NCBI RefSeq assembly: GCF_000016745.1
Contig: NC_009483.1
Location: 3,540,001 to 3,572,000 of the forward strand
Origin: Geotalea uraniireducens Rf4
GTDB taxonomy: Bacteria; Desulfobacterota; Desulfuromonadia; Geobacterales; Geobacteraceae
Direction of reading: 5' to 3'
Length of the DNA stretch: 32,000 bases
Shown: positions 550 through 23,133 of the stretch, in pieces
Position numbering within the stretch: the stretch's first letter is position 1
Layout of the letters: every line of letters begins with the position of its first letter
Position numbers and translations under genes: made by a program
The notes under the pieces: model-generated
Database searches by the model: none
Told to the model about the DNA's origin: nothing
The model's input: only the letters and a program-made list of their open reading frames with translations

Positions 550-645
550 GAAAATACGAAAGGGGCATGTTGCCCGTCACACCTGACCGGACAACATGCC
601 CCTTCGAAAACTCCCTTTTACTTTTTTTCAATCGTGCGCTGCCTG
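550..645 (+). repeat. 96-bp hairpin-containing repeat, copy 1 (left flank of the AT-rich cassette)
   Basis: gaaaatacgaaaGGGGCATGTTGcccgtcacacctgaccggaCAACATGCCCCttcgaaaact...gcgctgcctg recurs at 1917-2012 with about 5 mismatches in 96 nt. It contains an 11-bp perfect stem that extends with bulges. Confidence 0.9.
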
Positions 646-752
646 CCAGGTTTTAGGAAAAAAATGGGGAAATTTTTTAATGCTGTGGAGGCAGGAGTCT
701 TGGATCATGTTTAGACGTTAAAAGAATTTGCAAGTTATTTACGAACTTTAGG

Positions 753-807
753 TTGACAAATAATCACAATATGGTTTACAAATAATATATAAAATGTTTA
801 CAATAAT
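753..807 (+). promoter_or_regulatory. three phased direct repeats TT(G/T)ACAA(A)TAAT overlapping sigma70-like promoters for the 824 gene
   Basis: The motif starts at 753, 775 and 797, exactly 22 bp apart. One candidate promoter is TTTACA (775-780), an 18-nt spacer and TACAAT (799-804), about 20 nt before the ATG at 824. A second is TTGACA (753-758), 18 nt and TACAAA (777-782). Confidence 0.5.
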
Positions 808-823
808 TTAAACGAGGTCGATC

Positions 824-1864
824 ATGGATATAAAAGATTTCATTTTGGAAGCCATTTACCAAAATAAAACAGGGCACCTTTCGCAGACAATAGCCGAAAA
901 ATTCAATATCACCCGGCAAGCAGCACAAAAACATATCAAACAACTTGTCGATGCTGGCATTCTTATTATGACTGGTTCTACAAAATCAGCAAAATATGAG
1001 TTTGTCAAAATTGTAAGTGAGCAGAAACGTTTTGATTTATCTCCAGGAATAACTGAAGATTTTCCATGGCGTACATTTGTCAGGCCGCTGCTGGACAATT
1101 TGCCGGGAAATATTATATCAATTTGTCAGTATGGTTTTACCGAGATGTTTAATAATGCCATTGACCATTCCGGAGGTAGTAGCGTTCTGGTGTCTGTTGA
1201 GAGAACAGCATACAATATAGAGTTAGTGGTAAGTGATGACGGTATTGGCATTTTCCGTAAAATAACTAATGATTTCAAGCTTGATGATGAATTACATGCA
1301 ATACTCGAACTTTCGAAAGGGAAATTAACCTCAGACCCTTCTCGTCACAGTGGAGAAGGTATCTTTTTTACCAGCAGGATGTTTGACCGCTATAACATAA
1401 TATCTGGGAAACTACATTTTTCGCATACATTAACAAATACAGATTGGTTGCATGAAGGGAACAACCCGCACACAGGGACAGGCGTTATTATGGATATAAG
1501 AATTTCTAGTGAACGAACAACACGGGCGATTTTCAACGAATTTGCAACTGTTGACCATCCCGGTTTTTATAAAACCATTGTTCCGGTATACCTAGCCCAG
1601 TACGGGGATGAGAATATGATTTCCCGTTCTCAGGCAAAACGAGTTCTGGCGCGTGTGGAGAAGTTTAGAGAGGTTGTCCTTGATTTTGAAAGGGTAAAAG
1701 AAATCGGGCAAGCTTTTGCCGATGAAATTTTCAGAGTTTTTAGACTGGCAAATCCTCACGTACATCTTATTCCAGTTAATGCAAATGAGTCCGTTCAATG
1801 GATGATTGACCGCGCCATCGCTTCCAGTGATGCGGAAGTTAATCAACTTAGTGTTAAAGATTGA
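824..1864 (+). CDS. wHTH - GHKL (histidine-kinase-like) ATPase - STAS-like (DUF4325-type) fusion protein
   Basis: 346-aa ORF. The N-terminus resembles a winged HTH (LSQTIAEKFNITRQAAQKHIKQLVDAGIL). GHKL motifs are present: N-box FTEMFNNAIDHSGG, G1 VSDDGIGIF and G2 SGEGIFFTS. The C-terminus (SRSQAKRVLARVEKFREVVLDFERVKEIGQAFADEIF) resembles STAS-like DUF4325. GAGG precedes the ATG. The gene is markedly AT-rich relative to its flanks. Confidence 0.8.
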   Translation: MDIKDFILEAIYQNKTGHLSQTIAEKFNITRQAAQKHIKQLVDAGILIMTGSTKSAKYEFVKIVSEQKRFDLSPGITEDFPWRTFVRPLLDNLPGNIISICQYGFTEMFNNAIDHSGGSSVLVSVERTAYNIELVVSDDGIGIFRKITNDFKLDDELHAILELSKGKLTSDPSRHSGEGIFFTSRMFDRYNIISGKLHFSHTLTNTDWLHEGNNPHTGTGVIMDIRISSERTTRAIFNEFATVDHPGFYKTIVPVYLAQYGDENMISRSQAKRVLARVEKFREVVLDFERVKEIGQAFADEIFRVFRLANPHVHLIPVNANESVQWMIDRAIASSDAEVNQLSVKD

Positions 1865-1916
1865 TTCAACGCATTCCAAACCGAGACACTTCCTATTTTT
1901 TAAAGGAGGTGAGTTG

Positions 1917-1969
1917 GAAAATACGAAAGGGGCATGCTGCCCGTCACACTTGACCGGACAACATGCCCC
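1917..1969 (-). terminator. probable intrinsic terminator of the MCP gene, formed by repeat copy 2
   Basis: On the minus strand the hairpin GGGGCATGTTGTCCGGTCA...TGACGGGCAGCATGCCCC (1969-1929) is followed directly by TTTCGTATTTTC. It sits about 80 nt downstream of the MCP stop at 2051. Confidence 0.45.
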
Positions 1970-2012
1970 TTCGAAAACTGCCTTTTGCTTTTTTTCAATC
2001 GTTCGCTGCCTG
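1917..2012 (+). repeat. 96-bp hairpin-containing repeat, copy 2 (right flank of the AT-rich cassette)
   Basis: About 95% identical to 550-645 in the same orientation. It lies between the convergent genes 824..1864 (+) and 2051..3742 (-). Confidence 0.9.
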
Positions 2013-2050
2013 GCGGCAGAAATGGAGAAGCAGCGGTACGCCGCCGGCTC

Positions 2051-3742
2051 CTACGTATTGAACTGTGTAACCAATCCCTTCAGTTCTTCCGATAGCTCGG
2101 AAAGCTGGGCCGCAGCAAGACTGACCTCCTGCGAGCTCTTGGCACTCATTTGCACCACATCGGAGATAGACTGGATGTTATTGGTAATCTCACGGGTTGT
2201 TGCGGTTTGCTCCTCGGCTGCCGTTGCAATCTGATTTATCTGCATCGTCACGCCGCTTATCTGAATGAGGATTTCTTCCAGCGCTTCGCCTGACTTGGCA
2301 GCCTCTGTCGTGCCCACTTCAACCTCCTTGACCCCCTCCTCCATCGCCTTGACAGCCAGCTTGGTTTCGGACTGAATGTTCTTGATCATTTCGCCGATTT
2401 CCCGGGTAGCCTTGGTGGTCCGCTCTGCAAGGGCACGCACCTCGTCGGCGACAACGGCAAAGCCCCTACCCTGCTCGCCGGCCCTGGCCGCCTCTATGGC
2501 CGCGTTAAGCGCCAGGAGATTGGTCTGGTCGGCTATATCTTCAATGGTGCCGACAATTTCACCGATCTGTTCCGAGCGGTTGCCGAGCAGTTCGACCACC
2601 TTTGCCGAATCCCTGACCTTTACTGCGATTTGATTCATGCCATTCACCGTCAACTTGACGATTTCAGCTCCCTTCTGCGCTGCGTTGCTGGCCTGCTCGG
2701 AGCTTGTCACCGCCATGTGGCAATTGTTGGCAATCTCGGAACTGGTGGCAGCCATCTCCTCGCTGGCTGTCGATACGCTTCCGGCCTGACTCACCACATC
2801 GCCGGAGTTTTCCGCTGTCTGCCTGGCGTTTGCCTGGAGTTCGGCAGAGGCTGCAGAAACCTCCATGGAACTGCGATTTACCCGTTCCATGATTATGCGG
2901 AGATTTTCGACCATCCGCTTCATGGCGCCGTAAATGCCGCATTCCGCATCATCCAGAGATACCGTCAAATCCCCTCTCGACACCCTTTCGGCGATGTCTT
3001 CAAGCAGCATCGGCTCGGTGCCGATATGCTGCAGCAGCCTTTTTGTCAAAAAGATCGATATTACAGAAATGCCGATCAAAATTACGAATGTCGCGCCGAG
3101 AATCTGATAAACACCCTTTTTCAGGGCGCGCAGATTTTCTTCGGCAGCTTTTGCCACGATCGCTTCGATGTCATCCACATAATTGCCGGTACCGATAACC
3201 CAGCCGAACGGGGCAAAAAGCCGGGAATAGCTCCTCTTGGGAAACGGCGTAGGACCATCTTTTTTCGGGTACCAGTAGTCGGTAAAGCCGCCATCCTGCT
3301 GCATGCCGTTCTTGATTATTTCCTGGATGAGGTATTTCCCCTTTGCATCCTGAAGATTGAAGCGATTGGTCCCCTCGATCGGCTTGCCGAGCATGACGAC
3401 GTTCACCCCTTCGGTGGTGTCGGCCCATATATAGCCGTCCTGGCCGTATTTGATGTTTCGCAACAGGTCAGCGCCCTGTTTTTTGGCTTCATCAAGGGTA
3501 ATTTCCCCCTTCTGGCTCCGCTCAAAGACCCGTTGCAGCATGCTTAGAGAAATCTCGACTTCGCTCCTGGCAAGCCGATCGAAGTCCGCATAGAGGGATT
3601 TCTTGTACGAACCTATAAAATTGTTATACGTCGTAAAATATTCCTTCAGGAATAATGCGCTTACGACCAGCGCCAGGACGATACTGCTCGCTAACACCAT
3701 CAACAGGACCTTGGTACGGAAACTTAACTGTTTTTTTACCAT
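2051..3742 (-). CDS. methyl-accepting chemotaxis protein with periplasmic single-Cache (sCache_2-like) sensor and HAMP
   Basis: 563-aa ORF with an N-terminal TM segment. Cache signature: [23 protein letters not shown]...[11 protein letters not shown]...[13 protein letters not shown] second TM segment and HAMP follow. The MCP signalling hairpin is conserved: [39 protein letters not shown]. Confidence 0.92.
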
Positions 3743-4332: not shown

Positions 4333-6135
4333 ATGAAATTCATTTTTCCCTGTGTCGCTTCGTTCATGCTTACTGTCGTTATCACGCCGCTGGTCATCCG
4401 CTTTGCGAAGGCTTGCAAGTGCCTGGATGTACCGGGCGGGCGGCGGGCGCACAAAAAGGTAACCCCACGATGGGGGGGAGTGGCGTTCTTTGTCGGAGTG
4501 CTGCCATTTATGTTCATGGAAAACGAAAGCGGCGCCCTGACATCCTTCATCGTCGCTTCGTGCTTTCTGGTCGGCATGGGGATCATAGACGACCTTAAAT
4601 CGCTTGGATGGAAAACGAAATTTGCCGGTATGGCGATAGCTGCAACGATAGTCATATTTGGCGGGAATATCGCTGTGCATCACATCGGGACCTACGGTTC
4701 CCTGGGCAGGCTGGACCTGGGGCGGCTCAGTATCCCCTTTACCTACCTAAGCATCATCGGCATAACAAACGCCATCAACCTTCTCGACGGTCTTAACGGC
4801 CTTGCCGGCGGTGTATCGCTGCTGGGGTTTCTGTTTATGGGGATTGCCGCTGTCATCGCGGGCAATATCGTGGTTGCATTGGTCTGCTTCGCCTTCGTGG
4901 GAGCACTGGGCGCGTTTCTCCTTTATAACTTTCCCAACGCCAGGATCTTCATGGGGGACTCGGGAAGCACCTTTCTGGGCTTCTCCCTTTCCATCATGGC
5001 CGTATTCCTGACCCAGGATGCGAACTCGTCCGTGGATTCGATGTTCCCGGTACTCGTGCTTCTCATTCCCATATTCGATACTCTCCGGGTGCTTTTCGTG
5101 AGGCTCCTGAACGGAAAAAATCCGTTCCAGGCAGACAACCTTCACCTGCATTACCTGATCGTAGAAAACCTTTCACCTATGAAGGTGGCGCTTCTGTTCT
5201 GGTCATTGACGGCAGTGTTCGGCAGTATTGCTCTCACCCTTACCGGCAAGACGTCGGTGTCATACCTTGCCGTAGTGCTGTATGCCTCTTTGCTCTTGAG
5301 CCTGTTCGCCATAAGCCTTACACAGAGGCGGCCTCAGGAAAAAGGCCGTCTCAAGACGCTGCGGCCGGCCGGTATGAGCGCGGATTCGTCCGTCCTCATG
5401 CCGTATGACGATGCCGGCCCGGACTTTGCCCGAAAAGGAGAGATGATGATGACACTCAAATGGCTGGTGGTCCTGGGAATTGTGCTGCTGACCGCTCAGG
5501 TGAGCGCCGGGGAGCCGCAGGACCTCAAAACCCAGAAGGACAAGGTAAATTACGCCATCGGCGTCAACATGATCAACAGCTTGAAGATGCAAGGTGTCGA
5601 GATCGACCTGGACCTCGTGATAAAGGGAATGAGGGACGCGCACTCGGGCGGAAAGCTCCTCCTGCCCGATGACGAGCTCCGCAAATCCATAGGCGTGTAT
5701 CAGACTGCGGCCCGGCAGAAGCAGGCAATGGTCAGGGTGATCGCGGCGGATGAGAACAAGAAGGCGGGCGAGGCGTTCCTGGCTGCGAATGCGCAGAAGG
5801 AAGGGGTGGTGACCCTGCCGAGCGGGTTGCAGTACAAGACCCTCAAGGCTGGTGACGGCATGAAACCGACGGATGCGGACACGGTGGAGGTCAACTACCG
5901 GGGGGCTCTCATCAACGGGACCGAGTTTGACAGTACCGAACCAGGGAAACCCGCGGCCTTGAAGGTTGCCCAACTCATCGCCGGCTGGAAGGAGGCGATG
6001 AAGCTCATGCCGGTGGGCTCGAAGTGGCAGATCTTCATTCCTTCCCGGCTCGCTTACGGTGAGCGGGGATCGGGAAAACAAATCGGGCCGAACGCAACGC
6101 TCGTTTTTGAAGTGGAGCTCCTCGCCATCAAGTGA
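4333..6135 (+). CDS. GT4-family polyprenyl-phosphate HexNAc-1-phosphate transferase (WecA/MraY-like) continuing in frame, with no stop, into an FKBP-type PPIase
   Basis: 600-aa uninterrupted ORF. Residues 1 to about 335 are multi-TM and carry GT4 motifs: VTPRWGGVAFF, NAINLLDGLNGLAGG and FMGDSGSTFLGF. Residues from about 371 onward form a complete Mip/FkpA-like protein. AGGAG lies 6 nt before the ATG at 4333. Confidence 0.8.
   Translation: MKFIFPCVASFMLTVVITPLVIRFAKACKCLDVPGGRRAHKKVTPRWGGVAFFVGVLPFMFMENESGALTSFIVASCFLVGMGIIDDLKSLGWKTKFAGMAIAATIVIFGGNIAVHHIGTYGSLGRLDLGRLSIPFTYLSIIGITNAINLLDGLNGLAGGVSLLGFLFMGIAAVIAGNIVVALVCFAFVGALGAFLLYNFPNARIFMGDSGSTFLGFSLSIMAVFLTQDANSSVDSMFPVLVLLIPIFDTLRVLFVRLLNGKNPFQADNLHLHYLIVENLSPMKVALLFWSLTAVFGSIALTLTGKTSVSYLAVVLYASLLLSLFAISLTQRRPQEKGRLKTLRPAGMSADSSVLMPYDDAGPDFARKGEMMMTLKWLVVLGIVLLTAQVSAGEPQDLKTQKDKVNYAIGVNMINSLKMQGVEIDLDLVIKGMRDAHSGGKLLLPDDELRKSIGVYQTAARQKQAMVRVIAADENKKAGEAFLAANAQKEGVVTLPSGLQYKTLKAGDGMKPTDADTVEVNYRGALINGTEFDSTEPGKPAALKVAQLIAGWKEAMKLMPVGSKWQIFIPSRLAYGERGSGKQIGPNATLVFEVELLAIK
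5443..6135 (+). CDS. FKBP-type peptidyl-prolyl cis-trans isomerase (Mip/FkpA-like) with its own signal peptide; possible independent translation from an internal start
   Basis: AAGGAG (5435-5440) precedes the triple ATG at 5443/5446/5449. The product starts MMMTLKWLVVLGIVLLTAQVSAGEP (signal peptide). An FKBP_N dimerisation helix region follows, then the FKBP core VEVNYRGALINGTEFDS...IAGWKEAMKLMPVGSKWQIFIPSRLAYGERG...ATLVFEVELL. Confidence 0.6.
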   Translation: MMMTLKWLVVLGIVLLTAQVSAGEPQDLKTQKDKVNYAIGVNMINSLKMQGVEIDLDLVIKGMRDAHSGGKLLLPDDELRKSIGVYQTAARQKQAMVRVIAADENKKAGEAFLAANAQKEGVVTLPSGLQYKTLKAGDGMKPTDADTVEVNYRGALINGTEFDSTEPGKPAALKVAQLIAGWKEAMKLMPVGSKWQIFIPSRLAYGERGSGKQIGPNATLVFEVELLAIK

Positions 6136-6650: not shown

Positions 6651-6761
6651 ACGCGGATAAATGCAGATTTAAGTCAAAACCGAAAATCACCGGGCGGAAC
6701 AATGGTCAACGATGAAACAACAGGAACATGGGTGCAATCAAGCACAAAAGGAGGGAATATC

Positions 6762-9700
6762 ATGTCCAGGTGCAGATTTTTGACATGGATGAGTCTGGCA
6801 TCGGCGGCAGTCGCCCTTGTCAGCGTATTTGACCCGGGCCGCGCCCTTGCCGCCCCCGTGACGGGGCCCGGCAGTGTCCCGGACTACTTCGAGACCCCAA
6901 ACTGGGCCAACAGCCCCCCCCTGAGGAAATTCGTCGACTCGCTGGCGCCTCTGGGGTGCACCACGCCGAACACCCTCGGCCAGTGTATTCCGGTTGCCGT
7001 CCCGGATACGACAACCTATCCGGGGTCCGATTACTACGAAATCGAGGTTGTCCAGTATCGCGAGCAGATGCATTCGGATCTTCCTGCGGTCGTCGGCAAC
7101 AAGATGGACCCTGCAGCCACAGGCGGGACCCTGCTGAGGGGGTACAGGCAGTTCAATACTGCCGATCCCAACCTGTTGACCCCCCACTACCTGGGCCCCC
7201 TGATCGTTACCAAGAAATACGATCCGCGATATGCGCCGGACGCACCCTTGCCGGGTGGCGGCACGAATGGGAGACCGGTGCGCATCAAGTTCATCAACAG
7301 CCTGCCCACCGGGGACGGCGGCTACCTATTCATCCCGACAGACACCACCGTCATGGGTTCGGGGATGTTTGAGATCAATTATGACCCGGTGACCAAGGCT
7401 CCCGGCCCCACGATCACCGGTGATTTCGCGCAGAATCGGGCCACCCTCCACCTCCATGGCGGCCACTCTCCGTGGATCAGCGACGGAACCCCCCACCAGT
7501 GGATCACCCCGGCTGGAGAGGTCACGCCCTACGCCAAGGGGGTCAGCGTGGCCTACGTGCCCGATATGTGGTTCGACGCGGCCGGGAACACGATTGCTGC
7601 CTGCGCGGGCCAGACGACCTGCGGGGTTGGGGGAGCGACGAACAATCCCGGTGCAGGCGCGCAGACTTTCTACTACACCAATGAGCAGAGCGCCAGGCTG
7701 CTCTTCTACCACGACCATTCCTGGGGAATCACCCGCCTCAACGTCTATGTCGGCGAGGCTGCGGGCTACCTGATTGAAGACCCCGTAGAGATTGCCCTGC
7801 GCGACGGCGGGACCATCAACAGCCGAACCTTCACCGCCGGGACGATTCCCACCGCCCAGATTCCTCTCGTCATCCAGGACAAGACCTTCGTGGACGGCAA
7901 CCCGGCCAGCCCGACTTACGTCCGCGCCACTGATCCCACCTGGAACTGGGGATCGGGCACGCCGGTCGGAGGCATTCGCCCGCCGGTCACCGGCGACTTC
8001 TGGTGGCCCCATGTCTACATGCCGGCCCAGAACCCGTTCAATCCCGACCTGAGCGGGATGAACGCCATGGGGCGGTGGCACTATGCCCCCTGGTTCTTCC
8101 CGCCGCCCCCGATATGCGGGTCCGACCCCGAAGCGGTGAAACCGTACTGCATCGAGTTTGGTACGGTCGCAAACCCCTATTACGACTGCGGCCCTGGCGG
8201 CCCTTGCACCAATCCGGGCCAACCGCCGGAGATCCCCGGCACCCCCAACGTATCATGGGGGGCGGAAGCGTTCCTGGACACCATGATGGTCAACGGAACA
8301 GTCTACCCGACTCTTCCGGTACAGGCGCAACCTTACCGCCTCCGGATCCTGAACGCCTCACACGACAGGTTCCTCAACCTGCAACTTTATAAAGCCACCC
8401 CTATCGTCAGCGGCATCACCGTTGTCACCGGGGGGACCGGTTATACTTCTGCTCCTACGGTCGCCCTCATCGGCGGCGGCGGGACGGGCGCCACTGCAGC
8501 AGCGACGATCGATCCGGCAACCGGCGCCGTTACTGCGATCGACCTTCTTACCGTGGGGAGCGGGTATACATCTCCTCCGGCTGTCTCCATCACGGGTGGC
8601 GGCGGAACGGGCGTCGCTGCAACAGCAGCAGTTTACACTGCCTTGACGGAAGTAGGCATGGTGCCTGCGGCATCGACCTCGGGCTTCCCTGCAAGGTGGC
8701 CGGCGGACGGCAGGGAAGGTGGCGTGCCCGATCCGGCGACGAGGGGCCCCGCGTTCATTCAGATCGGCACCGAAAGTGGCTTCCTGCCGGCGCCGGTGCT
8801 ACTGAACAACCAGCCTGTTGCCTGGAACCTCGACCCGACCATGTTCAACGTCGGGAACGTTCTCCAGCAGGCCGACGGAGGCGGCACGCTCTTCGTCGGT
8901 CCGGCTGAACGGGCGGACGTCATCGTCGACCTCACTAACTACGCCGGTCAGACCCTGATCCTCTACAACGACGCTCCCACCGCTTTCCCGGCGCTCGTCC
9001 CACAATATAACTACTACACGGGCGCCCCGGACCGGCGCGACATCGGCGGTGCAGCCCCAATCCCGCCGGGTTTTGGCCCCAACGTCCGGACCGTAATGCA
9101 GATCACGGTGGCGGGAACCGGCGGCGCCGCGCCCCCCGATGACTACAACCCGGCGACCCTGAACGCGCTGCAAACTGCCTTTGCCGGCGGTGCGACACCC
9201 GGCGTTTTCCAGTCGTCCCAGGAGCAGATCCCCGTGGGGCAGAGTGCCTACGATTCCACTTACAACACCACTTTCCCCGCCACCTGGCCGAACTGGGGCG
9301 TATCGAGAATCTCGGATAGCGCAATAAGCTTCCAGAAGGTTGATGGCACAATTGTGAGCAATTTCAAGATGAAGGCCAAGGCCCTCCATGACGAGATGGG
9401 CGAGACCTTCGACGACTACGGGCGGATGAGCGCCAAGCTGGGGCTCGAAGTGCCGTTCGTCAACGCCGCGAACCAGAACTTCATCCTCCAGAACTACGTC
9501 GATCCGGCCACCGAGGTCGTGAACAACAACGGAGTCCAGATCTGGCGGATCACCCACAACGGCGTGGACACACACCCCATACATTTCCACCTGTTCGACG
9601 TGCAGTTGCTCAACAGGGTTGGCTGGGACGGGTTCATCAGGCTCCCCGACCCCAATGAGCTGGGGTGGAAGGACACCGTCAGGATAAGCCCGCTGGAGGA

Positions 9701-10688
9701 CACGATCGTCGCGCTCCGGCCGACCACTCCCATAGTGCCGTTCTCGCTCCCCAACAGCATCCGTCCTCTGAACCCATCTACACCCTTCGGCTCCACGATG
9801 GGATTCTCGCAGCTCGACACGACGACAGGCGGAGACATTGTGCCGCCCCAAACGAACCAGTTGGCCAACTTCGGACTGGAATACGTGTGGCACTGTCACA
9901 TCCTGAGCCACGAAGAGAACGACATGATGCGGTCGACAATACTGAATCCCAACACCAGGGACGACATCCTCTGGAGGAACACCTCTAACGGCCTGAACGC
10001 GTTCTGGTACCTGGACGGGGTAACGCGCACGGCGTCTGCATATATTCCCTCAATGACCGATCAGAACTGGAAGATCGTGGGCAGGGGTGATTTCAACACT
10101 GACGGCAAACCCGACATCCTCTGGAGGAATACCTCCAACGGCCAGATCGCGGTCTGGTACATGGACGGGGTAACGCGCACCGGATCCGCATTCCTTCCCA
10201 CATTAACCGATCAAAACTGGAAGATTGTCGGTGTGGGTGACTCCAACAATGACGGAAAACCCGATATCTTCTGGAGAAATACCTCTAACGGCCAGAACTC
10301 GGTCTGGTACATGAACGGGGTAACGCGCACGGGGTCCGCTTATTTCCCCGTATTAGCCGACCAGAACTGGAAGATAGTGGGCGTACGCGACTTCAACGAT
10401 GACGGCAAACCCGACATCATCTGGAGAAATACCTCTAACGGCCAAAATGCGGTCTGGTATATGAACGGAGTAACGCGCACCGGGTCTGCTTATTTCCCCA
10501 CACTAACCGACCAGAGCTGGCAGATTGTGGGTACCGGGGACTTCAACAGCGATGTCTATCCGGACATCCTGTGGAGGAATACCACTACCGGAGCGAACAT
10601 GACATGGTATCTGAAAGGGATAACACAGATAGGGACGGGAACGATCGCCACACTTGCAGATCAAAACTGGAAGATTGTGGGACAATAG
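6762..10688 (+). CDS. large multicopper oxidase (OmpB/OmpC-like) with C-terminal FG-GAP/VCBS repeat domain
   Basis: All four MCO copper motifs are present: [23 protein letters not shown] and [14 protein letters not shown] prefer the start at 6762 (M21 of the ORF-track ORF 6702..10688) because AAAGGAGGG lies 6 nt upstream and a signal-like [20 protein letters not shown]...ALAAP follows. The C-terminus carries five repeats of the type [50 protein letters not shown]. Confidence 0.9.
9961..10685 (+). repeat. about 4.8 tandem copies of a 150-bp coding repeat (FG-GAP/VCBS blades)
   Basis: cgacatcctctggaggaa recurs at 9962 and 10112, with close variants (atatcttctggagaaa at 10263, acatcatctggagaaa at 10413, acatcctgtggaggaa at 10563) continuing the 150-bp period. 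Long identical runs recur, for example ggggtaacgcgcac and gaccagaactggaagat. Confidence 0.9.
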
Positions 10689-10716
10689 CAGCATTATGAT
10701 TACCGGGTTTTAGATT

Positions 10717-21648: not shown

Positions 21649-22895
21649 TGGCTGCCCTGACTGTTTATGCCCGTCCGCAACTTCTGAAAATTATCAAGTG
21701 CCAGAACCAACGCGCAGGAGCCGGCCAAGGCCGCTAAAAAGACGATCGTTACGATTTTTCTCCTTACCGGCTTGCTCCGCCTCTCCGGCACCTTTGCATT
21801 CTGCAGCACATGAAACGGCGAAACGTCCTTGACCTCGGACAGCTTCGCCACCTCGTACTGTTTGGCCAGCAGCTCCACCAGCGTCTCCTGGATCCTGAAC
21901 TCCCGCATCAGCCGCAAATACTCCTGTCCCAGCTGCGGCATACTTCCGACTGATGGAATGGAACTGCTCCCCTCGCCATTTCCCTCCAGCTTGACGATCT
22001 GTGCCTGCAAATTTGCCGCTGTGGATTTGGCCGTTTTTACCTCCTGGCTTGATTCGGTAAACTGCCTCCGGAAGGTGGCCAACTGCACCTCCTGAGCAGC
22101 AAGTTGGGCCCGCAACTGCGCCACTCCCTCGATGGTGGCCTTGGCCTGGTCGGTTACCGATACGGCCTTATTTTTTGCCTGAAAGGCTTTGAGAGCATCC
22201 TCCGCCTTTGCCAGATCGACACGGGCCGCAGCGAGGCGTTCTTCCAGATACCCGCGGTCCTTGCCGGCCGATGTCATGTTGAGCCTGGCGGCAAGTTTCC
22301 CCAGCTCGTCCACGTAAGCATTGGCCAGATCCGCTGCCCGCTTGGGATTCTTGTCGTCCACGGCAATGGTGATGACCCCGTCCTTTTTGCCTGCCGTGAC
22401 GATGACATTCTTATCCAGCGCCGTGTACACATCGGACCGAAACTTTGCCTCGTACAGATCCTTCAGCTTGAAGCGGTCGATAATCGGGTCCTTGACCGTC
22501 TCACTCTTCAGCATGGTCACATACAAGCCGGCCTTGGTCGCCCCCCCCAGACCACCACCGGCAATACCGGCAACACCGCCCAGACCGCCAAGTTGGGCCA
22601 TCATGGCCCCCATGACCCCTTTGTCGTCCTCTCTGGGCAGAATCATGGCCTTTGCAGTGTAGATGCCGGGGATCAGCAGAACGACAATGATACTGATAAT
22701 GGTGGCGACCAGGGTGATGCCGGCGATCAGCCGCCAGCGTTTGACGAACAGGGCCAGGTAGTCGAAAAGAGTGGGAGCAGGTTCGAGGTTCGAGGTTCGA
22801 GGTTCGAGGTTAGAACCAGCTTCAAGGTTCGAGGTTCGAGGTTCGAGGTTCGAGGCGCGAGGTTCGAGCTTGTTAGTATCGGAATGCTGCATCAT
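21645..22895 (-). CDS. polysaccharide co-polymerase / chain-length determinant (Wzz/GumC-like, no kinase domain) with a repeat-encoded N-terminal extension
   Basis: 416-aa ORF with the Wzz pattern: FDYLALFVKRWRLIAG plus TM1, a long coiled-coil periplasmic region, and a C-terminal TM (IVTIVFLAALAGSCALVLAL). GGAG lies 5 nt upstream of ATGATG. Residues 9-40 (LEPRASNLEPRTSNLE...SNLEPRTSNLEP) are encoded by heptanucleotide repeats. Confidence 0.85.
   Translation of the reverse strand: MMQHSDTNKLEPRASNLEPRTSNLEAGSNLEPRTSNLEPAPTLFDYLALFVKRWRLIAGITLVATIISIIVVLLIPGIYTAKAMILPREDDKGVMGAMMAQLGGLGGVAGIAGGGLGGATKAGLYVTMLKSETVKDPIIDRFKLKDLYEAKFRSDVYTALDKNVIVTAGKKDGVITIAVDDKNPKRAADLANAYVDELGKLAARLNMTSAGKDRGYLEERLAAARVDLAKAEDALKAFQAKNKAVSVTDQAKATIEGVAQLRAQLAAQEVQLATFRRQFTESSQEVKTAKSTAANLQAQIVKLEGNGEGSSSIPSVGSMPQLGQEYLRLMREFRIQETLVELLAKQYEVAKLSEVKDVSPFHVLQNAKVPERRSKPVRRKIVTIVFLAALAGSCALVLALDNFQKLRTGINSQGSQ
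22779..22866. repeat. two tracts of the heptanucleotide AGGTTCG (coding-strand CGAACCT) inside the wzz-like 5' coding region
   Basis: Tract A has perfect units at 22779, 22786, 22793 and 22800 and a degenerate unit at 22807. Tract B has perfect units at 22825, 22832, 22839 and 22846, a degenerate unit (aggcgcg) at 22853 and a perfect unit at 22860. Isolated AGGTTCGAG copies lie at 22917 and 22934, upstream of the start codon. Confidence 0.95.
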
Positions 22896-22951
22896 TTATA
22901 CTCCGTCAGAAAAATCAGGTTCGAGGAAAAAACAGGTTCGAGTTTTCTCAT

Positions 22952-23133
22952 TCCTTTATCCTCGCACCTCGCTCCTCGATCCTGCCGTTTTACCTCGCTC
23001 CTTTATCCTCGCACCTCGTTCCTCAATCCTGCCGTTTTACCTCGTTCCTTTATCCTCGCACCTCGTTCCTCAATCCTGCCGTTTTACCGCGTTCCTTTAT
23101 CCTCGCACCTCGTTCCTCAATCCTGCCTTTACA
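22952..23133. repeat. about 3.8 tandem copies of a 47-bp repeat filling the wza-like/wzz-like intergenic region
   Basis: tcctttatcctcgcacctcg(c/t)tcctc(g/a)atcctgccgttttacc(t/g)cg(c/t) starts at 22952, 22999, 23046 and 23093. The last copy is truncated at the TAA stop of the upstream gene (23129-23131). A period of 47 is not a multiple of 3, so the array is non-coding. Confidence 0.95.

Follow-up and report, generated by a model that had tools for sequence, protein, structure and literature searches.

A one-gene AT-rich insertion in Geotalea uraniireducens carries a candidate regulator with wHTH, GHKL and STAS-like domains in a single chain

CapK and CapS are regulators of immune operons in bacteria (Chambers et al., EMBO J 2026, PMC13373217). 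CapK has the domain order HTH-STAS-GHKL and its gene is followed by capS, encoding a STAS-wHTH protein, the pair being located upstream of the immune operon. The internal STAS domain of CapK is not the substrate and helps to sense single-stranded DNA, while CapS autoregulates through repeated sites in its own promoter (PMC13373217). VapKSC is a toxin-antitoxin system in which the antitoxin VapS, a STAS protein of the DUF4325 type, is phosphorylated by VapK (PMC13373217). The three domain types of CapK, i.e. HTH, STAS and a SpoIIAB-like GHKL domain, are all present in a 346 aa protein of Geotalea uraniireducens, and its gene, like capK and capS, belongs to an accessory region of the genome. However, the order of the domains is wHTH-GHKL-STAS, there is no adjacent capS or second STAS gene and no immune operon downstream, and unlike VapKSC no VapC (PIN) gene adjoins it.

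The gene (824-1864, plus strand, ATG at 824) was analysed within a window of 32 kb, the whole stretch of DNA under study, where it occupies a cassette of 1,271 bp (646-1916) with a GC content of 38.3% as compared to 52.4% in the remaining window. The cassette lies between two direct repeats of 96 nt, copy 1 at 550-645 and copy 2 at 1917-2012, which are 95% identical with 5 mismatches and are 1,367 bp apart; extension of the repeat past 96 nt was not significant (p = 0.06-0.56). To the left and outside the insert lies the 5' end of a thiolase gene on the minus strand (1-293, ATG at 293-291), whose orthologues in L040-L045 are 391 aa long with Thiolase_N and Thiolase_C domains, and its promoter region (294-549) is alignable with that of relatives. 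To the right a methyl-accepting chemotaxis protein (MCP) gene of 563 aa on the minus strand (2051-3742), with dCache_2, sCache_2 and MCPsignal as the domains of its orthologues, ends 38 bp from copy 2. The hairpin core of the repeat (562-602 in copy 1 and 1929-1969 in copy 2) occurs twice in the window against 0.00-0.01 expected from shuffles. In both copies the fold is a strong hairpin (~19 bp; z = -3.3 and -3.9), with a U-rich tract after it on the minus strand. Copy 2 represents the native terminator region of the MCP gene and now has the MCP and cargo genes converging on it. Copy 1 is the extra one on the thiolase side; the thiolase start (293, minus strand) and the cassette promoter on either side of it point away from each other, so that no gene reads into it. 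The layout agrees with the sequence-only reading, which had described a ~1.27-kb AT-rich stretch with one gene and its own promoter between two same-orientation 96-bp copies with about 5 mismatches, a hairpin resembling the minus-strand MCP terminator, and a first copy that terminates no gene.

We looked at related genomes for the uninterrupted state of the locus. The MCP-thiolase synteny is present without the cassette in five contigs (L040, L042 and L043-L045) from three related lineages, with one 96-nt copy in each, and the empty site with a single repeat between the two genes that had been proposed as a check does therefore exist. Alignment to these sites showed exact insertion junctions and no loss of target sequence, and the MCP-thiolase intergenic region of 1,757 bp resolves into 390 bp plus 1,367 bp. 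The orthologous hairpin occurs once, directly 3' of the MCP orthologue, in a Geobacter sp. MAG (L008) and also follows the MCP gene in L040-L045; among 189 fetched loci it is restricted to the MCP terminator position. At four of the five sites that differ between the repeats, copy 1 departs from all relatives and copy 2 has the base of the relatives; the variants of copy 1 are 570T, 583C, 613C and 620A. As the relatives keep the synteny with no cassette and one copy of the element, the locus is a genuine insertion by which the MCP terminator was duplicated. Judged from these alignments, the thiolase promoter and the MCP gene have come to be separated by 1,271 bp of inserted, AT-rich foreign DNA with a self-promoted gene; the event gave a second copy of the 96-nt terminator segment of the MCP gene and deleted nothing. 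A minimal transfer event is documented here by the insert, its empty sites, exact junctions and a second site of the core, and it signifies that a bare gene without mobility function can settle between core genes while the signals of both neighbours stay intact.

The empty sites also bear on the possibility that the 96-nt element belongs to a dispersed family of intergenic repeats (similar to REP, MITE or attC) and that the gene merely lies between pre-existing copies. The element is indeed intergenic and contains a hairpin, but this explanation is extremely improbable given that relatives have one copy and no gene at the exact site, that the hairpin was seen nowhere else in the window or the 189 loci, that the element has no Rfam match, and that neither an integron integrase nor attC-like core sites at the ends of the hairpin stem were found. 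An exact 28-mer of the element had no match in the GTDB representative genomes, a set which does not include the source genome, and a hairpin pattern scan of JGI metagenomes gave no match, where the relatives differ at the pattern positions and the source genome is again not included. An integron cassette with attC was rejected as well, as the gene has its own promoter, the element has 2 copies in 32 kb with no Rfam hit, and the repeat is the MCP terminator found once in empty sites.

The cassette is found at other places too, and its ends could be compared. In other strains a copy of the core (687-1867) with 92% identity lies upstream of msrA, where the end sequences differ and the flanking repeat (~15 nt, 13/15 nt) is unrelated to the 96-nt element. 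A further allele adjoins draT in opposite orientation, the arrangement being different again. The left-end DNA of the present insert (646-686) is not common to other cassette copies, homology to L046 and L047 (92%) beginning at 687, and its similarity to the target flank is not significant. Similarly, the right-end DNA (1868-1916) is missing from the closest other copies, and homology to L046, L047 and L005 stops at 1867. Terminal inverted repeats were not above shuffles in five alleles (p = 0.09-0.64). The candidate inverted pair TTGGATCATGTTTA / TTGAATCAATCTTTA looked promising by eye and was discarded, as it did not exceed shuffles in any of the five alleles. No common motif was seen at the insertion junctions. 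As the core at msrA has other ends, a ~15-nt repeat and no inverted repeats, the cassette shows no defined element end or att site.

The sequence-only reading had taken the cassette as inserted at the MCP terminator with the repeats as attL/attR-like duplicates. The five empty sites uphold the insertion, and the other copies with their other ends speak against the attachment sites. In such a case the cassette would be a non-autonomous (CIME-like) element and an integrase encoded elsewhere in the genome would recognise the terminator hairpin. Direct repeats of target sequence around the insert, the long imperfect hairpin inside the repeat and a cassette without recombinase (the ORF list has no integrase or transposase within 646-1916, as had been noted) are what this reading expects. 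We nevertheless consider it very unlikely, since the core at msrA has other ends and an unrelated 15-nt repeat, the draT site is arranged differently again, the junctions have no motif in common, and in relatives the hairpin is simply the terminator of the orthologous MCP gene. A transposon, IS or MITE was also rejected on account of the absent transposase ORF, the absent terminal inverted repeats, flanking repeats of 96 versus ~15 nt and the differing ends.

Foreign DNA can be placed between direct copies of a chromosomal segment by Campbell-type integration. In E. coli with one-sided homology, 56 of the 60 recombinants were single crossovers of recircularised DNA, by which 109-950 bp of the homologous segment was duplicated (Amarir-Bouhram et al., PLoS One 2011, PMC3240628). 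The present locus has the same form, i.e. foreign DNA between direct copies of a homologous chromosomal segment and an insert without recombinase (PMC3240628), and the flanking repeat is a chromosomal segment that occurs once in the uninterrupted site. However, that study dealt with laboratory conjugation and identical homology, whereas here we have a natural event and a repeat of 96 nt with 5% divergence. We favour entry of the cassette by host recombination through such a single crossover of recircularised donor DNA. The donor would be a circularised fragment from a diverged relative in which the cassette lay beside a homologous terminator segment. One crossover in this segment would integrate the circle and duplicate the segment, leaving copy 2 as the working MCP terminator and copy 1 as a by-product. 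The 5/96 differences between the copies would exist because the crossover joined diverged homologous segments, and the split of the mismatches between the copies (4+1) agrees with a crossover close to the end on the thiolase side. A donor in which the cassette already adjoins an MCP terminator was not found, and the crossover model consequently needs an unseen intermediate.

A similar arrangement was observed in the relative L104, where a 536-aa ORF lies between repeats of 161 nt which are 92% identical; when these were compared site by site with outgroups, both copies had private changes.

The duplication could instead have arisen in situ, by two staggered breaks or nicks that enclosed the hairpin at a distance of 96 nt from each other and capture of a linear foreign fragment through end-joining or replication template switching, gap filling then giving a perfect 96-bp duplication that later gained 5 substitutions. 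This would suit a pure insertion with exact junctions and no target loss, the non-shared DNA at both ends of the insert (as for a random captured fragment), the location of 4/5 changes in copy 1, which has no function to preserve, and the variation of repeat length by event (~15, 96 and 161 nt). About 5 mismatches in 192 bp would be expected if the duplication took place soon after the split from the nearest empty-site lineage. On the other hand, the repeats are 5-8% diverged as against 3-5% for the nearest insert-free relatives in the region, the junction microhomology is 0-2 nt, and we know of no bacterial mechanism that routinely yields duplications of 96-161 bp. Duplication in situ is thus rather unlikely, and the single crossover remains our preferred route. 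Ordinary recombination seems enough to account for how the DNA was inserted, and the greater interest of the finding lies in the protein family.

To delineate the cargo protein we used Pfam, an AlphaFold2 model (pLDDT 85.6, pTM 0.81) and Foldseek. Pfam matched HTH_11 at aa 7-49 (E 2e-7), HATPase_c_2 at aa 99-192 (E 1.3e-7) and DUF4325 (PF14213) at aa 270-325 (E 1.3e-15), so that the HMM search proposed earlier found all the three parts. On the basis of Pfam and the model, the wHTH extends over aa 1-71 (nt 824-1036, plus strand). The SpoIIAB-like GHKL ATPase/kinase domain covers aa 79-226 (nt 1058-1501, plus strand) by Pfam, the model and Foldseek, whose top five matches for this domain were SpoIIAB (1l0o, 1til, 1th8; probability 1.0; target-normalised TM 0.72-0.75). 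The DUF4325 STAS-like domain covers aa 233-345 (nt 1520-1858, plus strand) by Pfam, the model and an alignment to VapS. Across 73 homologues no variation was seen at the box residues E107, N110, N111, H115, D138, G140, G142, G177, E178 and G179. The initial description of a wHTH, a GHKL module with intact N, G1 and G2 boxes and a STAS-like domain in one polypeptide is borne out by the Pfam matches, the model, Foldseek and these invariant residues. As the box residues are conserved, the GHKL domain probably binds ATP.

The GHKL fold and its boxes are common to the cargo protein and the partner-switching pairs SpoIIAB/SpoIIAA and RsbW/RsbV. In contrast to these, a single chain contains both kinase and STAS, preceded by a wHTH; genes for a sigma factor or PP2C are absent from the neighbourhood, the neighbours being thiolase and MCP, and the STAS-like domain has no phosphorylatable serine at the canonical site. 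In the STAS substrates of partner switches a Ser/Thr is conserved at the N-terminus of helix alpha-2. In the cargo protein the phospho-acceptor Ser48 of VapS aligns with Gln296 (codon 1709-1711, plus strand), which is at least 90% conserved in the family of the protein and is preceded by the invariant Gly295. With Gln296 at the acceptor position, the canonical step from kinase to substrate cannot take place there. Neither the suggested self-contained partner switch nor a classic self-phosphorylating one is therefore supported. A true single-chain partner switch could still operate if the GHKL domain phosphorylated its own STAS domain at Ser267 or Ser269, whereby the kinase domain would be freed to sequester a sigma factor or the wHTH would be released from DNA. 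The first STAS helix begins with an invariant motif, S267-R-S269-Q, the GHKL fold is closest to the anti-sigma kinase SpoIIAB and the ATP-binding motifs are intact; but with Gln296 at the canonical acceptor position and no gene for a PP2C phosphatase or a sigma factor close by at any of the loci examined, we regard such a switch as quite doubtful. It is more likely that the STAS-like domain serves the kinase domain as an internal partner, regulatory or as a pseudosubstrate, an idea modelled on the internal STAS domain of CapK. As output, DNA binding could change, or a protein encoded at another locus could be phosphorylated.

The kinship of the cargo protein to CapK and VapK/VapS is only distant. 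The similarity to CapK of E. roggenkampii is limited to 47 columns from the N-box to G1 (hhalign, E 3e-4), CapK matches none of the Pfam families matched by the cargo protein, and VapK had no significant similarity to it. The C-terminal domain belongs to PF14213 like VapS (E 1.3e-15, and 2.7e-17 for VapS), with the common motif (V/I)LDF..V. It differs from VapS in having Gln296 in place of Ser48 and in being fused to the kinase.

The region upstream of the gene in the conserved core (687-823, plus strand) contains a conserved non-coding block GGATCATGTTTAGACGTT (702-719), a putative promoter with -35 at 775-780 and -10 at 799-804, and GAGG at 814-817, all on the plus strand and upstream of the ATG at 824. 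Three direct boxes on the same strand, GGTTGACAAATAAT (751-764), GGTTTACAAATAAT (773-786) and GTTTACAATAAT (796-807), follow each other at a phase of 22 bp. The box pattern recurs at homologue loci, where the spacing histogram peaks at 21-22 bp and phased repeats of 21-22 bp are present in 10-11 of the 36 loci, as compared to 0.2-0.5 in shuffles. The wHTH probably binds these three candidate boxes over its own -35 and -10, and as the boxes overlap both hexamers the gene would autoregulate; the phasing of direct repeats at 21-22 bp upstream of the gene likewise suggests autoregulation. Owing to the overlap, the boxes could in part be mere promoter elements. Taken together, a foreign insert that entered by Campbell-type crossover and encodes an autoregulated, ATP-binding regulator with Gln296 in its STAS-like domain is an account that we hold to be about evenly balanced between right and wrong.

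The family of the cargo protein comprises at least 1,251 clusters at 50% identity, having a uniform length of ~345 aa and being solitary. This large uncharacterised family unites parts of CapK/CapS and VapKSC in one chain, minus the phospho-acceptor. By analogy with these systems we put forward, as a speculation that is probably wrong, that the family is a stand-alone single-chain relative of CapK/VapK that senses DNA damage or single-stranded DNA and acts as a one-gene immune or prophage-protective switch. In such a switch the fused non-phosphorylatable STAS domain may gate the kinase, the wHTH on the phased candidate operators may hold the gene poised, the activated kinase may act on a host or phage target, and the promoter-plus-gene cassette may be small enough to spread by host recombination alone. 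If the protein does sense phage or DNA-damage signals, the signalling logic of CapK/VapK would extend to a single-gene format, and it would be a candidate matched by no PADLOC-DB v2.0.0 model; if it is merely an autoregulated transcription factor, the finding is ordinary. Assignment to a known defence system was rejected, as PADLOC (PADLOC-DB v2.0.0) matches were confined to the HTH region. The NCBIfam search of the protein gave nothing above cut-offs, PDB sequence searches returned HTH and histidine-kinase fragments only, and the BFVD fold search gave domain-level matches only.

The distribution of the homologues was compared to gain insights on their likely role. Their genes retain low GC in genomes of 31-70% GC and are usually AT-richer than the host DNA. 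The survey of homologue neighbourhoods that had been recommended came out negative for a conserved partner gene among 29 loci, the recurring neighbours (terminase and tail genes) representing phage-lineage synteny, and just 3-4 of the 101 neighbouring ORFs matched known defence families. In L002, L005 and L007 the gene is surrounded by housekeeping or variable genes that are unrelated. By tblastn no homologues were found in GenBank phage records (INPHARED collection) or in PLSDB plasmids. Being a single gene with its own promoter, GC below the surroundings and a position between functional modules, the cargo gene resembles prophage morons; unlike them, it is located here between two core chromosomal genes and not in a prophage. 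The solitary occurrence, the AT-richness relative to the host and the presence on predicted prophage contigs and in variable regions suggest an accessory role in regulation or conflict, possibly one related to phages. Homologues are encoded on 56 IMG/VR viral contigs, and where the neighbours in these loci are annotated, the gene has a transcriptional regulator on one side and the small terminase on the other, or else follows the tail genes.

The MCP (methyl-accepting chemotaxis protein) gene and the thiolase gene of the window are separated by two same-orientation copies of a 96-nt element (copy 1 at 550-645 and copy 2 at 1917-2012, 95% identity), and in local alignments with shuffling the repeat did not extend significantly in either direction. 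The interval that they enclose (1,271 bp) has a GC content of 38.3% against 52.4% in the remaining window and carries one credible ORF, the cargo gene (824-1864, plus strand, 346 aa), preceded by a promoter-like site (-35 at 775-780, -10 at 799-804) and by GAGG 6 nt ahead of its ATG. Each repeat harbours a strong hairpin of about 19 bp (z-scores -3.3 and -3.9) that is followed by a U-rich tract when read on the minus strand, and two matches to the 41-nt hairpin pattern were counted in the 32-kb window, where shuffles predict 0.00. Copy 2 lies 38 bp from the stop of the MCP gene (2051-3742, minus strand). Copy 1 has the thiolase start (293, minus strand) to one side and the cassette promoter to the other, so no gene reads into it. 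The sequence-only reading had described this repeat pair, the AT-rich single-gene cassette with its promoter and a first copy with nothing to terminate, all of which were confirmed.

Five other proteins share the 90%-identity cluster of the window MCP, and the contigs encoding three of them keep the gene order of the window (GT4-FKBP fusion, MCP, thiolase, 3-hydroxyacyl-CoA dehydrogenase, enoyl-CoA hydratase and acyl-CoA dehydrogenase). These are five contigs, L040 (ENA groundwater metagenome), L042 (Logan assembly) and L043-L045 (JGI and ENA); they have 338-390 bp between the MCP stop and the thiolase ATG without the cassette, and are 91-97% identical to the window across the MCP-thiolase region. 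In alignment each contains a single uninterrupted copy of the 96-nt segment, the left and right halves of the window meet exactly at the repeat borders with neither target loss nor deletion at the insertion site, and the intergenic lengths add up (1,757 bp in the window = 390 + 1,367). In the more distant Geobacter sp. clean984 MAG (L008, MCP protein 88% identical) the orthologous hairpin is present once, immediately after the MCP stop, and in every relative the pattern was confined to this terminator position, with no further occurrence among the 189 fetched loci. These empty sites prove that the cassette is an insertion and that the repeat is its duplicated target, bearing out the earlier proposal of insertion at the MCP terminator element, for which close relatives had been suggested as the place to look. 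At the five sites that differ between the copies, the relatives' base is in copy 2 at four and in copy 1 at one; copy 2 is therefore the native terminator and copy 1 the extra one. The glycosyltransferase-FKBP fusion of the window (4333-6135, plus strand, 600 aa), which joins a family-4 glycosyltransferase (MraY/WecA-like) to FKBP_N and FKBP_C peptidyl-prolyl isomerase domains, is kept in L040-L045. In L008 synteny is lost directly past the MCP terminator, so in that lineage, too, the terminator-proximal spot is variable; a GTAAAAATTTTTTACAA-like motif is present there in three copies (7815-7950), followed by an ORF (8106-8630) that, from reading its translation, resembles IS3-family orfA.

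The identical cargo protein was detected in only two short Logan contigs, one of which, L001, has the same arrangement as the window. Close homologues (72-94% identical) were located in unrelated contexts: beside nif and draT genes (L002 and L003), next to crcB (L007) and, in L005 and L006, with a peptidase gene on one side and a FabMG-like gene on the other. The gene is solitary in every case, at about 38-40% GC within DNA of 50-58% GC, and DNA homology of these loci to the window is limited to about 687-1867. The clearest example comes from two further loci, L046 and L047, which are 92% identical over exactly 687-1867 and carry the cassette upstream of msrA. The insert there (positions 668-2000 of L047) includes 145 bp of other DNA on the left and has a 13/15-nt repeat (GTAGCAGAATAACCG and GTAGCAGAAAAATCG) at its flanks; comparison with L104, an ENA groundwater contig from a relative of the source organism, showed that in uninterrupted sequence the two flanks overlap by about 18 bp. 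In L110, a strain 97% identical to L002, an allele 71% identical to that of L002 lies beside draT in inverted orientation, and in more distant strains the draT-adjacent spot holds unrelated DNA. The two alleles (L110 2567-3373 and L002 6001-7065) are just downstream of draT, which is itself 97% identical. No terminal inverted repeats were detectable in the cassette alleles.

The lack of fixed ends, target or repeat length is evidence against a transposase or dedicated integrase, and the suggestion of a mobile mini-island with att sites is unsupported in its strong form. The best experimental precedent is the study of Amarir-Bouhram et al. (PMC3240628), where 56 of 60 recombinants obtained with incoming DNA of one-sided homology were single crossovers of recircularised molecules that duplicated 109-950 bp of the homologous segment. 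Given this precedent, we favour a Campbell-type single crossover, in which donor DNA of a diverged relative would have introduced the cassette. This would also account for the 5% divergence between the copies, and the 4+1 split of their differences is consistent with a crossover close to the end on the thiolase side. No donor of the cassette was found, and the target may instead have been duplicated in situ, the copies drifting apart afterwards. The transfer of a bare gene is thereby well documented, and host recombination is its most likely route.

At the msrA-upstream spot where L046 and L047 carry the cassette, L104 has a different single-ORF insert (1043-3382), whose 536-aa product had no match in Pfam or PADLOC. 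It is bounded by 161-nt direct repeats (92% identical) that take in the first ~85 nt of msrA and contain a frameshifted pseudo-5' end of this gene, so long, slightly diverged target duplications recur in these bacteria. The arrangement suggests a hot spot for insertions accompanied by long duplications of the target. Four independent metagenome contigs (L106-L109) all start at this apparent hot spot, 36-345 bp upstream of msrA, which would fit strain heterogeneity interrupting the assemblies there.

The domains read from the cargo protein were all recovered by Pfam profiles, with HTH_11 and other wHTH families at aa 7-49, HATPase_c_2 and HATPase_c (GHKL) at aa 99-192 and DUF4325, described as STAS-like, at aa 270-325 (E 1.3e-15). 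An AlphaFold2 model built from 73 homologues (pLDDT 85.6, pTM 0.81) had SpoIIAB chains as top PDB matches, and the N, G1 and G2 box residues were invariant among these homologues. PADLOC matched the HTH region only. Almost nothing has been published on DUF4325. Two related systems were reported in 2026 (PMC13373217): ssDNA activates CapK (HTH-STAS-GHKL), which in turn phosphorylates CapS (STAS-wHTH), and VapK (STAS-GHKL), VapS (STAS) and VapC (PIN) form a toxin-antitoxin system. Using the CapK, VapK and VapS sequences from the supplement of that paper, we found that alignment of CapK with the window protein was restricted to the N-box-to-G1 stretch and that VapK gave no significant alignment. 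VapS is itself a DUF4325 protein (E 2.7e-17), like the C-terminal domain of the window protein; hhalign aligned its residues 30-45 to 278-293, a placement that puts the phospho-acceptor Ser48 of VapS opposite Gln296. This residue directly follows the invariant Gly295 and shows at least 90% conservation in the family. The canonical partner-switch phosphorylation step would therefore be unavailable to the window protein, and the strong form of the self-contained partner switch envisaged from sequence is unsupported. Judged by these comparisons, the protein shares domains with both systems and belongs to neither family; by analogy it may share their logic.

With a cut-off of E <= 0.001 the family numbers at least 7,993 clusters (90% identity), and with E <= 1e-30 it has 1,251 clusters (50% identity). 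Of the latter, the 150 best that were listed almost all measure about 340-360 aa and match over their full length. Hosts include Geobacteraceae, Sulfurimonas, Anaerolineales and others. Members were also present in 56 IMG/VR viral contigs, where GC of the homologue is below its surroundings in nearly all loci; where neighbours were annotated, it either separates a transcriptional regulator from the small terminase or follows the tail genes. An integrase was within 2.6 kb at 5 of 29 loci. In the neighbourhood survey, which had been proposed from the sequence-only reading, no recurring partner gene emerged among the loci covered, and few neighbouring ORFs (3-4 of 101) matched PADLOC. The family is large, uniform and uncharacterised, and rearranges the signalling parts of CapK and VapK into one solitary protein; the insertion described here draws attention to it.

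Upstream of the cargo gene, three boxes (GGTTGACAAATAAT, GGTTTACAAATAAT and GTTTACAATAAT; window 751-807) start at 752, 774 and 796, thus 22 bp apart, and overlap the -35 and -10; the box occurs nowhere else in the window. Two to four similar boxes with the same phasing are likewise present at homologues that are 34-85% identical, even in L048 with flanks of 69% GC, and certain clades have another box sequence at unchanged spacing. In the window and at nine loci from very different hosts (L048, L051, L052, L055, L059, L063, L079, L097 and L102) the boxes are direct, phased at 21-22 bp and mostly of the TTKACAA type. Across 36 non-redundant loci, 10-mer repeats (<=1 mismatch) peaked at 21 bp (10 loci) and 22 bp (11 loci), against 0-3 loci at each other spacing and 0.1-0.6 in shuffles. 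This family-wide phasing gives good indirect support to binding of the wHTH to its own promoter. Near the left end of the shared core is a non-coding block (702-719, GGATCATGTTTAGACGTT), about 105-120 bp upstream of the ATG, with equivalents in L002, L005, L047 and L110; between L002 and L110 it appears, by eye, better conserved than the 71%-identical coding regions, and its candidate roles are those of a second operator, a divergent promoter or a recombination signal.

Elsewhere in the window, a long ORF (6702-10688) contains four tandem 150-nt units (9962-10711), which the repeat finder gave as 300-nt copies that overlap, and a block of 47-nt tandem repeats with 7-nt (GGTTCGA) tandem repeats is located near 22.8-23.1 kb (22764-23130).
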